The position numbers and the translations under genes were made by a program. Below, in pieces: positions 16,545-24,405 of a stretch of DNA of 64,000 nucleotides. Within the stretch, counting starts at the first letter, position 1, and the number at the start of each line of letters is the position of its first letter. The notes beneath the pieces are model-generated. The model ran no database searches. It was not told the origin of the DNA and saw nothing but the letters and a program-made list of their open reading frames with translations. Location: assembly GCF_054482595.1 (NCBI RefSeq), contig NZ_CM137008.1; one strand, written 5' to 3'.

Positions 16545-17827
16545 TTTGTTAAACCGGTGCAGACCTGCAGGAAAGCACGCCAGCACCGGCACTGTACGAT
16601 ATAAACATCCGGTACCGGGGATACGAATGGAATGACGAATACGCCAGAAAAGGGATAACAACCTTCCTCATAATGGTGAAATCATTCGCTATCGGTTACA
16701 CGGTACGCGATGTCGCCAAAGGCAGCTGGATCGACGAATCCACGGTCACGCTACCGAAAGCGCCGCCGCTTAACACCCTGCCTCGGGCGACCAAAGTGCC
16801 GGAGCCACTGCCGCCGCAGGAAGATTACACCTTTGAAGGTTACCGCAACGCCGACGGCAGCGTGGGCACCAAAAACCTGTTGGGTATTACCACCAGCGTG
16901 CACTACATGGCAGACGTTGAGGACTACGTGGTTAAAATTATCGAACGCGACCTGCTGCCGAAATACCCGAGCATCGACGGCGTGGTCGACTTGAACCACC
17001 TCTACGGCTGTGGCGTAGCGATTAATGTACCGGCCGCCGTGGTGCCAATTCGCACCATCCATAATATTGCGCTGAACCCAAACTTCGGTGGCGAAGTGAT
17101 GGTGGTGGGCATGCAGTGCGGTGGCAGCGACGCGTTCTCCGGCGTTACCACTAACCCCGCTGTCGGCTACGACTCTGACCTGCTGGTGCGCTGCGGCGCA
17201 ACGGTGATGTTCTCCGAAGTCACTGAAGTACGCGACGCCATTCATCTGTTAACGCCACGCGCCATCAATGAAGAAGTGGGCAGGCGTCTGCTCGAAGAGA
17301 TGGCCTGATACGATAACTATCCCGATATGGGCAAAACCGACCGCAGCGCCAACCCTTCGCCGGGCAACAAAAAGGGCGGCCTCGCCAACGTGGTAAAGAA
17401 AGCACTCGGCTCCATTGCTAAATCGGGTAAAACCGCAATTGTTGAAGTGCTGTCGCCCGGTCAACACCCGACTAAACGCGGATTAATTTACGCCGCGACG
17501 CCAGCCAGCGATTTTGTCTGTGGCACGCAACAGGTGGCTTCGGGTATCACCGTGCAAGTGTTTACGACCGGCCGTGGTACGACGTACGGCCTGATGGCGG
17601 TACCCGTCATTAAAATGGCGACCCGCACCGGGCTGGCGAACCACTGGTTTGATTTAATGGATATTAACGCAGGCACTATCGCTACCGGCGAAGAGACCAT
17701 TGAAGAGGTGGGCTGGAAGTTGTTCCACTTTATTCTCGACGTCGCCAGCGGGAAGAAGAAAACTTTCTCGGATCAATGGGGATTGCATAACCAGCTGGCA
17801 GTGTTTAACCCGGCACCGGTGGCCTGA
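16545..17827 (+). pseudogene. garD: Galactarate dehydratase pseudogene (heavily decayed 5' end, ~80-codon internal deletion, premature stop)
   Basis: ORFs 16673..17308 and 17327..17827 read ...[60 protein letters not shown]...[17 protein letters not shown]...LLEEMA* and [23 protein letters not shown]...FNPAPVA*, which is E. coli GarD with the segment between EVMV-G and VVGMQCGG missing. Upstream (16545-16672), broken frames still show QESTPAP.LYDIN and NGEIIRY. Confidence 0.85.
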
Positions 17828-17854
17828 TATTCTCTTCATACATTAAGTTGTATT

Positions 17855-17883
17855 ATGCCCGATAACGCTTGTTTATCGGGCAT
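17855..17883. terminator. Bidirectional hairpin between convergent garD' and agaR
   Basis: ATGCCCGATAA-cgcttgt-TTATCGGGCAT (11-bp stem) in the 62-bp spacer. Confidence 0.6.
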
Positions 17884-17889
17884 AGTGAA

Positions 17890-18714
17890 TCACAGCGAAG
17901 ACGCGAGCTCCCCGACCAGAATCACTTCAACCCCAGCCTTTCGCAAGCCTTCCAGACTATCCGCAGGAATGCCTTCATCAACAATGATCATGTCGATACG
18001 TTTAGTATCAATGATCTTATGTAAACTGGAACGATTGAACTTACTGGAATCGGTGACCACGATGATCCGTTCCGCAACTTCGCACATCCGGCGGTTTAAA
18101 CGGGCTTCATCTTCATTATGCGTGCTGACGCCGCGCTCCAGATCGATCGCATCTACACCAAGAAACAGCATATCGAAGTGGTAATTTTGCAGCGATTGCT
18201 CAGCCTGATCGCCGTAAAAAGATTGCGACTGACGGCGCAAATGCCCGCCGGTCATCAGCAGCTCAACGCCTTCCGCTTCCAGCAACGCATTAGCCACGTT
18301 CATACCGTTGGTCATCGCAATTACGTCAGTGTGCTTGCGCATCAGACGAGCAATCTCAAAAGTGGTGGTCCCGGAATCGAGGAGCACCCGATGACCTGGC
18401 TGAATCAACTCAACGGCAGCTTTCGCAACGCTGCGTTTCATCGCGGTGTTCAGTGCGCTTTTGTCTTCCACTGATGGCTCGACTGACGGCGTCGTGCTAT
18501 CGCAGATCAACGCGCCACCATAGGCACGCACAGCGATCCTCTGCTTTTCCAGAAACGCCAGATCGTTGCGGATCGTCACAGTAGATACGCCATACAATGC
18601 CGACAGATCGTTAACCTGCACACTCCCTTGCTGTCGCAGACGCTGAATGATCTGTTCTCGTCGCTCGCTGGTGCCTGTCACTCGCTTCTCACCTGAAGCG
18701 TCGGTATTACTCAT
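17890..18714 (-). CDS. agaR: DeoR-family repressor of the N-acetylgalactosamine/galactosamine regulon, 274 aa
   Basis: [58 protein letters not shown]... is E. coli AgaR. The C-terminus carries 5 extra residues (..[11 protein letters not shown]) compared with the 269-aa K-12 protein as I recall it. Confidence 0.9.
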
Positions 18715-22173: not shown

Positions 22174-22186
22174 GGATCTTACCCCG

Positions 22187-24076
22187 ATGAAGAAAGTGCT
22201 CACTCTCTCACTGCTGGCTCTCTGCGTTTCTCATGGTGCAGCGGCAGCAAACTACGCGCTCAATAACGACAATATTGCCCTCTTGTTTGATGATACAAAC
22301 TCAACGGTCGTGGTGAAGGACAACAAGGCTAACCATCCGCTCACGCCGCAGGAGTTGTTCTTTCTGACGCTGCCGGATGAGAGTAAAATCCACACCGTGG
22401 ATTTCAAAATCAAGCACGTCGAAAAGCAGGATAACGCGATTATCATCGACTTTACGCACCCGGATTTTAACGTCACGGTGAAGCTGAACCTAGTGAAGGG
22501 AAAATACGCCAACATCGGCTACACCATTGCCGCCGTGGGGCAGCCGCGCGACGTCGCTAAAATCACCTTCTTCCCGACCCAAAAACAGTCTCAGGCTCCT
22601 TACGTAGACGGCGCAATCAATAGCTCTCCGATCGTTGCGGACTCGTTCTTTATCCTGCCGGATAAACCGATCGTGAATACCTACGCCTATGAAGCCACCA
22701 CCAATCTCAACGTAGAGCTGAAAACGCCGATTCAGCCAGAGGCGCCGGTCAGCTTTACTACTTGGTTCGGCACTTTCCCGGAAACCAGCCAGCTGCGCCG
22801 CAGCGTGAACCAGTTTATTAATGACGTACGTCCACGCCCATACAAGCCTTATCTGCACTACAACAGCTGGATGGATATCGGCTTTTTCACTCCCTACACT
22901 GAACAGGATGTGCTGGGGCGTATGGACGAGTGGAACAAGGAGTTCATTACGGGCCGCGGCGTGGCGCTGGACGCCTTCCTGCTGGATGATGGCTGGGACG
23001 ATCTGACCGGACGCTGGCTATTTGGCACGGCATTCAGAAACGGTTTTAGCAAAGTACGGGAGAAAGCCGACAGCCTGCACAGCTCCGTTGGGCTATGGCT
23101 TTCACCGTGGGGTGGCTACAACAAACCGCGCGACGTTCGCGTTTCGCATGCAAAAGAGTATGGGTTCGAAACCGTGGACGGCAAACTGGCGCTGTCGGGA
23201 GCGAACTACTTTAAAAACTTCAATGAGCGGATCATCAAGCTTATCAAAAACGAGCACATCACCTCGTTTAAACTCGACGGGATGGGTAACGCCAGTTCGC
23301 ATATCAAAGGCAGCTCGTTCGCCTCAGATTTCGATGCATCAATCGCCCTGCTGCACAATATGCGCAGCGCAACTCCGAATCTGTTTATCAACCTGACCAC
23401 CGGCACCGACGCCAGCCCGTCCTGGCTGTTCTACGCTGATTCTATCTGGCGTCAGGGAGATGACATCAACCTGTATGGTTCCGGTACGCCGGTGCAGCAG
23501 TGGATGACCTACCGCGATGCCGAGACGTACCGCTCCATTGTCCGTAAAGGCCCTCTGTTCCCGCTGAACTCGCTGATGTACCACGGGATAGTCAGCGCCG
23601 AGAATGCCTATTACGGGTTAGAGAAGGTGCAAACGGACAGCGACTTTGCCGATCAGGTCTGGAGCTACTTCGCGACCGGCACCCAGCTGCAGGAGCTGTA
23701 TATTACCCCGTCCATGCTGAACAAGGTGAAGTGGGATACGCTGGCGAAGGCTGCAAAATGGTCGAAGGAAAATGCCAGCGTGCTGGTTGATACCCACTGG
23801 ATTGGCGGCGACCCAACGGCGCTTGCCGTGTACGGCTGGGCATCCTGGAGCAAAGACAAAGCCATTCTCGGTTTGCGCAACCCATCGGATAAGCCACAGA
23901 CCTACTATCTGGATTTGGCGAAGGATTTCGAAATACCGACAGGAGACGCGGCGCAGTTTAGTCTGAAAGCGGTATACGGCAGCAATAAAACCGTGCCCGT
24001 TGAGTATAAAAACGCGACGGTGATTACGTTGCAGCCGCTGGAAACGCTGGTGTTTGAGGCGGTGCCCGTTAACTAA
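22187..24076 (+). CDS. Secreted glycoside-hydrolase-like protein (alpha-galactosidase-like clan GH-D guess), 629 aa
   Basis: ORF track 22163..24076. The ATG at 22187 gives the signal peptide MKKVLTLSLLALCVSHGAAA|ANY. The motifs AFLLDDGWDD and ITSFKLDGMG resemble the DDGW and K-x-D nucleophile motifs of GH27/GH36 enzymes. The start overlaps the malY-like stop region. Confidence 0.5.
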   Translation: MKKVLTLSLLALCVSHGAAAANYALNNDNIALLFDDTNSTVVVKDNKANHPLTPQELFFLTLPDESKIHTVDFKIKHVEKQDNAIIIDFTHPDFNVTVKLNLVKGKYANIGYTIAAVGQPRDVAKITFFPTQKQSQAPYVDGAINSSPIVADSFFILPDKPIVNTYAYEATTNLNVELKTPIQPEAPVSFTTWFGTFPETSQLRRSVNQFINDVRPRPYKPYLHYNSWMDIGFFTPYTEQDVLGRMDEWNKEFITGRGVALDAFLLDDGWDDLTGRWLFGTAFRNGFSKVREKADSLHSSVGLWLSPWGGYNKPRDVRVSHAKEYGFETVDGKLALSGANYFKNFNERIIKLIKNEHITSFKLDGMGNASSHIKGSSFASDFDASIALLHNMRSATPNLFINLTTGTDASPSWLFYADSIWRQGDDINLYGSGTPVQQWMTYRDAETYRSIVRKGPLFPLNSLMYHGIVSAENAYYGLEKVQTDSDFADQVWSYFATGTQLQELYITPSMLNKVKWDTLAKAAKWSKENASVLVDTHWIGGDPTALAVYGWASWSKDKAILGLRNPSDKPQTYYLDLAKDFEIPTGDAAQFSLKAVYGSNKTVPVEYKNATVITLQPLETLVFEAVPVN

Positions 24077-24142
24077 ACGCTTGTCCCAATGAGCAGACCG
24101 AGTAAGGCGCAAGCGCCACCCGGCAAAACCGGCAGCAGGGGC

Positions 24143-24405
24143 TTATTCCCCCTGCTTTTCCAGCGCATACTTATACAACGCATTCTTCTTCACTCCGTGG
24201 ATTTCTGCCGCCAACGCCGCCGCTTGCTTCAACGGCAGCTCAGCCTACAACAGCGCCAGCGTACGCAGCGCATTGGCGGGCAGTTCGTCATCCTGGGCTT
24301 TATGGCCTTCAATAATCAGCACCATCTCGCCTTTGCGAGGGTTTTTATCTTCTTTGATCCACGCCAGCAGTTCGCCGACCGACGTGCCGTGGATGGTTCC
24401 CAGGC
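24143..24405 (-). pseudogene. rsmI: 3' fragment of the 16S rRNA C1402 2'-O-methyltransferase gene rsmI (yraL) with an internal TAG
   Basis: Reads ..[83 protein letters not shown], which is the RsmI C-terminus. The TAG lies at 24245-24247 (complement). The 5' side is joined directly to an internal point of an IS66 tnpC. Confidence 0.8.

Follow-up and report, generated by a model that had tools for sequence, protein, structure and literature searches.

A garD-aga-rsmI slice of probable non-Escherichia origin carried as a module in genomic islands of Escherichia coli

A 64,000-nucleotide stretch of contig NZ_CM137008.1 (RefSeq assembly GCF_054482595.1), hereafter the window, contains a genomic island in which a run of about 8 kb (16665-24403) keeps the K-12 order of the chromosomal genes from garD to rsmI: garD', agaR, a kbaZ'::'kbaY fusion, three intact genes, and rsmI'. 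We call this run the garD-rsmI module. The island lies at pheV, since the window contains a tRNA-Phe gene (59626-59701) with an adjoining integrase open reading frame (ORF) of the tyrosine type (58163-59428), followed by yqgA and speC. The anatomy of the module is based on the list of ORFs, on the annotation by the Prokaryotic Genome Annotation Pipeline (PGAP) of strain SM107, whose genome is 100% identical, and on direct alignments to K-12. These three sources agree with the gene content and order given in a preliminary description made from the letters of the window alone, as the tRNA gene and its flanks yqgA and speC agree with the pheV location proposed there.

Gene content and joints of the module

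The first gene, garD' (16665-17827, plus strand), aligns with K-12 garD and is annotated by PGAP as a pseudogene of a 'UxaA family hydrolase'. It lacks its first ~180 nucleotides (nt; ~60 codons) and contains internal deletions of 11 nt and 219 nt as well as stop codons. A spacer of 62 nt, devoid of prlF-yhaV, leads to an intact agaR of 274 amino acids (17890-18714, minus strand), a second copy of the aga repressor gene that matches the Pfam families HTH_DeoR and DeoRC, is annotated as agaR by PGAP, and is 98.5% identical in nucleotides to agaR of K-12. The divergent agaR-kbaZ promoter/operator region (18715-18962) is 97-100% identical to K-12 in each 100-nt window. It precedes an in-frame kbaZ'::'kbaY fusion (18963-19301, plus strand; junction at 19032-19044 in the alignment) made of the 75 nt (25 codons) of the 5' end of kbaZ and the last 258 nt (~86 codons) of kbaY.

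The three intact genes lie on the plus strand. The first encodes a MalX-like EIICB component of a phosphotransferase system (19415-20986; TIGR02004 at 721 bits, above the cutoff; Pfam PTS_EIIC and PTS_EIIB). The second encodes a pyridoxal phosphate-dependent C-S lyase of the MalY/PatB family (20995-22173; TIGR04350 at 363 bits, above the cutoff), and the third a protein of 637 amino acids with a predicted GH36-like fold (22163-24076; the PGAP start at 22187 gives 629 amino acids). The last gene, rsmI' (24143-24403, minus strand), is a pseudogene whose translation gives the last 86 codons and the stop codon, with one internal stop; the preliminary description had counted about 88 codons.

The left joint lies at 16662-16665, where intergenic DNA of the island backbone is joined to an internal point of garD (around nt 180). 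In a blastn comparison with an 'empty' backbone lacking the slice (strain GPEC484-624), the backbone homology stops at 16661. The garD homology begins at 16665 when compared with Raoultella, or at 16671 when compared with E. coli (garD nt 186). The preliminary description had set this joint at 16510-16545, next to a gene it called Gp2-like, and the two homology limits move it about 150 bp upstream of that gene. The neighbour is a hypothetical ORF of 170 amino acids in the island backbone (15998-16510, minus strand). The intergenic DNA upstream of it (16511-16661) is identical in all three island contexts described below.

The Gp2 identity of this ORF was dropped: it has no match to a Pfam, NCBIfam, or PHROG family, and a BLASTP comparison with two Gp2/YfjJ proteins from these islands gave an E-value of only 0.4. 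One DNA relative (86% identical) is labelled 'YagK/YfjJ domain-containing' in its database record. The empty backbone has, in order, an ECs1377-family gene, a 166-amino-acid ORF, a helix-turn-helix (HTH) gene, a hypothetical gene, and an inovirus Gp2 gene. The homologue of the 170-amino-acid ORF (84% identical) lies there between the ECs1377-family and HTH genes, three genes away from the Gp2 gene. The ORF is thus a backbone gene that cannot be demonstrated to be a Gp2. It accompanies the module in every context examined, being common to strain LTC101 and a further island sequence (L092) and shared in part with strain WWCOL-315. In WWCOL-315 (3300-4400, compared with 15450-16405 of the window) the distal two-thirds of the ORF are swapped for a homologue of ~65% identity and near-identity resumes at 16405, which suggests recombination within this backbone gene family as one route by which the module moves between islands. 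Elsewhere in the window, 3628-3852 is 68% identical to 16063-16288 on the opposite strand; it lies between an ISEc38 transposase and a GntR gene and is probably the remnant of a paralogue of the 170-amino-acid ORF.

The right joint lies exactly at 24403|24404, where rsmI, 260 nt before its end, is joined to nt 789 of a 1614-nt tnpC of the IS66 family of insertion sequences (IS), with only 1-2 nt of microhomology between the parents. The preliminary description had this joint, between rsmI and the interior of tnpC, at about 24405. What follows (24404-26093, minus strand) is the 5' part of an ISEc43/ISEc47-like element, with tnpC' (24404-25191), tnpB (25222-25572), tnpA (25569-26006), and the left inverted repeat ending at 26093. 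This part is 93% identical to an ISEc47 found in another of the sequences compared (L003) and matches the Pfam families LZ_Tnp_IS66, zf-IS66, and TnpB_IS66. With the right joint inside tnpC and the left joint in intergenic backbone DNA, neither is a transposon terminus, as had been noted from the letters alone. Both are illegitimate junctions away from any IS end, which supports the illegitimate recombination proposed at that time.

A second piece of an IS66-type element lies on the other side of the module, at 14952-15594. It is the 3' part of an ISCro1-like tnpC with a terminal repeat at about 14952, and at about 15594 it is joined to a truncated pseudogene of the ECs1377 family ('DNA-binding protein', 15589-15909). 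This is a third joint away from an IS end, and it is specific to the island context of the window. The presence of tnpC fragments in the same orientation on both sides (14952-15594 and 24404-26093) could mean that IS66-family transposition moved the slice, as a composite transposon or through an insertion that split a single element: the left fragment supplies the 3' part of tnpC and one terminal repeat, the right one the 5' part, tnpA, tnpB, and the other repeat, and together they resemble one element minus ~160-200 nt. Yet the fragments come from different members of the family, ISCro1-like (95%) on the left and ISEc43/47-like (93%) on the right, and the 8-nt outer flanks differ (TCGCTGAC versus AAACAGTA), so that there is no target-site duplication. 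We rejected both forms of the model on these two grounds. Moreover, the joints of the module are not IS ends, the right one being internal to tnpC, and the same right joint occurs in other islands that lack the ISCro1 fragment on the left. Transposition of this kind is very unlikely to have brought the slice to the island.

Native gene order, donor affinity, and the resident locus

The interval between kbaY' and rsmI' holds three genes without counterpart in the garD-rsmI region of K-12. When one genome of each bacterial species was scanned with the 637-amino-acid protein as query, its gene turned up in ~60 enterobacterial species. In the loci of Enterobacter, Klebsiella, and Raoultella, garD-agaR-kbaZ lies ~7 kb upstream of kbaY-X-rsmI-lpoA, where X is the gene of the 637-amino-acid protein, and yraN-diaA come next. 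Judging from these genome sequences, the chromosomes of Kluyvera, Enterobacter, and Klebsiella natively follow the order garD-agaR-kbaZ...kbaY-(malX-malY)-X-rsmI, and in E. coli the position between kbaY and rsmI is occupied by agaBCDI-yraHIJK in place of malX-malY-X. The preliminary description had treated the three GC-rich genes as foreign to the slice. Since Kluyvera and Enterobacter have them natively between kbaY and rsmI, they belong to it.

The right 5.4 kb of the module also has a clear sequence affinity. Positions 19044-24404 align with the chromosome of Kluyvera genomosp. 3 YDC799 as a single colinear high-scoring segment pair, at 94.4% identity over 5,363 nt. By gene, the nucleotide identities are 92.6% for kbaY', 95.4% for malX, 95.4% for malY, 94.6% for the gene of the 637-amino-acid protein, and 91.4% for rsmI'. 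The same region is 84-88% identical to many Enterobacter species, and kbaY' and rsmI' are 77% and 84% identical to those of K-12. The truncated ends of kbaY and rsmI have the same donor signature as the cargo between them, and we therefore take the whole to have been acquired as one contiguous stretch. At the other end of the module, the identity of garD (16671-17380) to E. coli is only 80-83%, a range that also covers the native locus in the genome closest to the window (strain 4FM, see below). A protein search with the translated 5' fragment of garD returned short fragments only, and its best match outside islands was 86-88% identical with uninformative names.

The module thus lies in a tRNA island, has non-host affinity, and is variably present in more than one island context, as foreign-origin island cargo does. 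We consider it probable that it is an old cargo module derived from a contiguous garD-aga-rsmI slice of a non-Escherichia enterobacterium, the closest among the sampled genomes being Kluyvera genomosp. 3. The preliminary description had offered capture of a chromosomal segment from another Escherichia lineage as one possibility; the captured chromosomal slice stands, but a mainly Escherichia origin does not fit the values given above (77-84% to E. coli, 94.4% to Kluyvera genomosp. 3).

The gene order, being that of K-12, and the 98% identity of agaR and of the 5' end of kbaZ to K-12 could also be read as a rearrangement of the host's own garD-aga-rsmI locus, by inversion, deletion, or duplication into the island, with the three foreign genes inserted later. 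Several observations speak against this. For the 5' part of garD, kbaY', and rsmI', the identity to E. coli reaches only 77-84%, and the native locus of 4FM falls within this range, whereas a copy of the resident locus would be nearly identical to it over its whole length; values of 96-98% are confined to 17400-19032. In other genera the three genes form one colinear run with kbaY and rsmI, and identical joints recur in different islands and in ~500 genomes whose backgrounds are unrelated. Finally, the native locus is complete in a proxy genome, neither empty nor rearranged. This genome, strain 4FM, is the closest full-length match to the window (100% identity over 15500-25500 and 99.4% over 40000-64000, at full coverage), and its locus at 588.7-609.1 kb reads garD-prlF-yhaV-agaR-kbaZ-agaVWEF-nagA-agaS-kbaY-agaBCDI-yraHIJK-rsmI-lpoA. 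Together, the low identities outside 17400-19032 and the intact locus of 4FM leave a rearranged host locus highly improbable, and with it the inversion/deletion history suggested at first.

The intact locus of 4FM also bears on a second suggestion, that the island might hold the only copy of these genes and the strain be garD-, Aga-, and rsmI-. Probes for agaR and rsmI each matched in two places in the carriers listed, and rsmI was matched in 5,424 of the 5,426 complete E. coli genomes that formed our population set. By this proxy the only-copy scenario is refuted. Judging from these genomes, the strain of the window almost certainly has its own garD, aga genes, and rsmI intact elsewhere, and the set in the island is an extra copy. 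This removes a false alarm, as no loss of garD, of the use of N-acetylgalactosamine (GalNAc), or of the rRNA methyltransferase RsmI is predicted for the strain.

Spread, decay, and the Escherichia-like tract

We searched the population set with probes of 120 bp centred on each joint, counting as a match an alignment of at least 80% of the probe length. The right-joint probe matched in 517 and the left-joint probe in 498 of the 5,426 genomes. The event that formed the module is therefore not specific to the strain of the window; ~10% of complete E. coli genomes share its joints. As both joints are found in ~500 independent complete genomes, including those of CFT073, Nissle 1917, and ATCC 25922, an assembly artefact or a chimeric contig is next to impossible.

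Parts of the interval 19300-24403 are present in 559 of the genomes, as two variants. Variant A (~324 genomes) is at least 99% identical to the window and has an intact malX. Variant B (~193 genomes, including the three named above) is 94.3% identical and its malX is cut to 81 nt. The two differ by 5.7% overall in the right part of the module and by 8% in the gene of the 637-amino-acid protein.

The joints are base-for-base identical in three contexts that differ in their outer flanks. The first is the pheV or pheU island: a near-identical island lies at pheV in the window and in 4FM, whereas SM107, GTEN_97, and others have it at pheU, after dsbD-dicD. The second, in CFT073 and LTC101, adjoins dgcT-pgaA and an aryl-polyene-type cluster; the dgcT-side island of Nissle 1917 carries the module as CFT073 does, whereas the module is absent from the pheV island of CFT073 over its first 44 kb. 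The third is another island, in WWCOL-315. The right junction is also present in L092. Only 84-117 nt of the IS66 tnpC fragment are left in the other contexts, so that the window has the least-deleted right end. We had considered LTC101 as an O-island of O157 and dropped this assignment, as the O157:H7 genomes show only the native rsmI and LTC101 matches CFT073. In addition, a 612-nt piece of the gene of the 637-amino-acid protein lies in strain EC71 (11998-12612; 87.5% identical to the window), in a different island beside the dpd genes of 7-deazaguanine DNA modification, and was found in ~41 genomes. This independent fragment indicates that pieces of the gene entered E. coli islands more than once.

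The core-gene fragments of the module have decayed at short repeats. The 219-nt deletion in garD, at about 17104-17113, lies between direct copies of the 10-nt repeat TGGTGGTGGG, and the CFT073-type variant (as in LTC101) keeps both copies and the 219 nt. The kbaZ'::'kbaY junction lies on a 12-nt motif, CCGCTGGTGCTG, that is common to the two paralogous parent genes of the aldolase family. The malX-like, malY-like, and 637-amino-acid cargo genes are all full length in the window. Compared with its Kluyvera genomosp. 3 homologue, the last is 97% identical in amino acids and 94.6% in nucleotides, a pattern of purifying selection.

One internal tract does not share the affinity of the rest. From the 3' end of garD through agaR to the 5' end of kbaZ (17400-19032), the module is 96-98.5% identical to E. 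coli. The sliding identity to E. coli jumps from ~80% to ~97% at 17380-17400 and keeps this level up to the kbaZ stub at 19032. The spacer between garD and agaR is of the type without prlF-yhaV that a minority of E. coli, MS1737 among them, has natively, and the tract as a whole is ~1.5-4% diverged from every native locus compared. The CFT073-type variant keeps more of kbaZ, which is E. coli-like (96.8%), and agaS-kbaY, which are Kluyvera-like (92.7%), and the ancestral tract therefore ended between nt 290 of kbaZ and the 3' end of agaS.

These observations can be assembled into a tentative history of a module of non-Escherichia origin, in which we infer the order of events. The malX-like, MalY/PatB, and probably secreted GH36-like genes are native between kbaY and rsmI in the donor clade. 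A slice of such a chromosome would have acquired a CP4-57-like backbone as its left neighbour and a truncated IS66-family element as its right one, in both cases by non-homologous end-to-end joining rather than transposition. Its core-gene fragments would then have decayed by short-repeat deletions (the 219-nt deletion of garD at the 10-nt repeat, and the kbaZ-to-kbaY deletion at the 12-nt paralogous motif), leaving the three cargo genes intact. The segment from the 3' end of garD to the 5' end of kbaZ would have been replaced by Escherichia sequence, most simply through homologous recombination with a resident aga locus lacking prlF-yhaV, and the finished module, with its joints fixed, would have spread among E. 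coli inside different islands. Read in this way, the tract 17400-19032 is probably a recombination tract from the resident aga locus, acquired after arrival in Escherichia.

The tract might instead be original. The slice would then have been captured from the chromosome of an Escherichia lineage whose aga locus was already a hybrid, foreign DNA having entered it by recombination on either side of an Escherichia core from the 3' end of garD through agaR to kbaZ. In two genomes recorded as Enterobacter hormaechei (CP169086.1 and CP170191.1), malX-malY-X lies natively between kbaY and rsmI, while the aga and rsmI-lpoA flanks are 94-95% identical to K-12 and kbaZ-agaVW 99.5%; either these genomes are Escherichia-like and bear the wrong name, or they are natural hybrids between genera at the aga locus. 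The divergence of the tract from every native locus compared (~1.5-4%), and its lack of prlF-yhaV, as in minority lineages, would also suit a hybrid donor. However, such a donor needs two foreign tracts (the 5' part of garD, and agaS to rsmI) where the recombination of a foreign slice with the resident locus needs a single conversion tract. In the two genomes just named, the cargo is Enterobacter-like and matches the module at no more than 86-88%, and rsmI is of the E. coli type; no sampled Escherichia genome has the sequence of the module at the native site. We regard a hybrid Escherichia donor as unlikely, if with a real chance of being right.

Several points weigh against a single non-Escherichia donor and a later conversion. 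The Escherichia-like tract could predate the capture, as hybrid native loci exist in the two genomes just described. The 5' part of garD is ~80% identical to every genome sampled and may have a different source; the Kluyvera genomosp. 3 locus compared stops short of garD and agaR, so that a single donor for this part is our extrapolation from the right side. At 94% identity, the sequences compared place the true donor outside the set of one genome per species. The divergence between variants A and B is above that typical of E. coli and requires that they recombined later or spent a long time outside E. coli. The intact native locus, for its part, is read from the closest complete genome and from population counts rather than from the genome of the window itself.

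Cargo function and relation to known systems

The 637-amino-acid protein is usually annotated as 'enterotoxin', and in some databases as 'alpha-galactosidase' or 'predicted exported alpha-N-acetylgalactosaminidase'. It has no match to Pfam or NCBIfam even at E<=10, including the Pfam Melibiase family, and a sequence search of the PDB returned no match. An AlphaFold2 model built with 29 homologues has a mean predicted local distance difference test score of 86.7 and shows the three domains of the GH36 fold: an N-terminal beta-sandwich, a (beta/alpha)8 barrel, and a C-terminal beta-sandwich. The N-terminal 27 residues are disordered in the model, which fits a signal peptide. The best PDB matches found by Foldseek are the A-antigen alpha-galactosaminidase of Flavonifractor plautii and GH36 alpha-galactosidases (E-values of 6e-25 to 1e-19, TM-scores of 0.44-0.63). 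Asp residues such as D275, D279, D372, D426, and D434 are invariant in the family. From the model, the protein is probably a secreted GH36-like alpha-galactosidase or alpha-(N-acetyl)galactosaminidase. Its place just downstream of the operon for GalNAc and galactosamine (GalN) use (aga) in many genera would fit the release of alpha-linked amino sugars, and the 'enterotoxin' of the module is more likely a glycosidase tied to amino-sugar use. Members of the same family are named 'enterotoxin YacT' in Yersinia, and relatives of 38-45% identity occur in metagenome-assembled genomes of Gemmatimonadota.

In the variant of the window, malX lies ~450 nt downstream of the intact agaR and of the conserved promoter region of kbaZ. 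A promoter/terminator scan, otherwise uninformative, found no terminator-like sites on the plus strand in 18650-19500. In K-12 the agaR-kbaZ region functions as an operator, as it may here, and from this arrangement of the sequence it is possible that AgaR controls the three cargo genes. A bolder and rather doubtful proposal is that the kbaZ-kbaY deletion made a compact self-regulated unit, in which AgaR and the kbaZ promoter would drive the malX-like gene, the MalY/PatB gene, and a putative secreted GH36-like alpha-GalNAc-ase/alpha-galactosaminidase, for the GalNAc-induced harvest of alpha-linked GalNAc or GalN from host mucin or blood-group-A-type glycans. If this were true, the unit would be a colonisation trait, and the name 'enterotoxin' a misnomer for a glycosidase.

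These features allow a comparison with known systems. The fold predicted for the 637-amino-acid protein is that of GH36 enzymes and the F. plautii alpha-galactosaminidase (PDB 9ayu, 8x1b, and 2yfn), and in many genera its gene accompanies the GalNAc operon; unlike these enzymes, it has no sequence-family match, is only 10-14% identical to them, and aligns with moderate TM-scores. Like the aga/gam cluster of K-12, the module combines an intact AgaR with conserved control sequences between agaR and kbaZ, but by its sequence the promoter would face a kbaZ'-'kbaY stub followed by the malX-like, malY-like, and GH36-like genes, not the GalNAc catabolic genes. With the native garD-rsmI-lpoA locus of Kluyvera, Enterobacter, Klebsiella, and Raoultella the module shares gene order and orientation, and its right 5.4 kb the 94.4% identity to Kluyvera genomosp. 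3. It differs from that locus by the absence of the aga phosphotransferase and catabolic genes between kbaZ and kbaY, by its dead and truncated garD and rsmI, and by its Escherichia-like agaR region.

GI-pheV and the pathogenicity islands (PAIs) of uropathogenic E. coli are modular, with modules separated by IS elements (PMC3203889). The garD-rsmI module resembles the mosaic modules of these tRNA islands in its pheV location, its tyrosine integrase, the IS debris and decayed fragments at its bounds, and its recurrence across islands. It differs from them in being an identifiable slice of the core chromosome of another genus, its ends marked by truncated garD, kbaY, and rsmI, and in having one internal tract swapped for sequence of the host species. 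It is thus ordinary mosaic-island cargo whose donor and history are unusually readable. We do not claim that its malX is the CFT073 'malX PAI marker' used in the typing of extraintestinal pathogenic E. coli: the CFT073 module keeps only 81 nt of malX, and the marker has been mapped to the core gene c2013 (PMC3203889).

The module would provide a clean, datable case of islands taking up core DNA from another genus, in which truncated housekeeping ends serve as fingerprints of the donor, and the later recombination of the island copy with the homologous locus of the host would be part of the example. The fixed joints make it possible to follow a single capture across ~10% of complete E. coli genomes, CFT073 and Nissle 1917 among them. 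In practice, the island agaR, garD', and rsmI' can mislead read mapping, typing of the multilocus sequence kind, and pseudogene calls. A literature search that left out subscription journals found no paper describing the garD-rsmI slice, and a prior description is possible.

Two other gene runs lie in the window. To the left of the IS66 debris, 4700-14750 holds a metabolic module with a GntR regulator, an amidohydrolase, a major facilitator superfamily transporter, the citrate-lyase genes citCDEFXG, and an acnB paralogue. To the right, at 32900-42000 (35410-44289 of sequence L001), a further run follows the K-12 order, with fragments of sgcC and sgcE (sgcC' and sgcE') and with sgcR, yjhI, yjhH, yjhG, yjhF, and yjhU. 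In K-12 these genes presumably belong to the KpLE2 region near leuX, and their run in the window may be a second embedded slice of a like kind.

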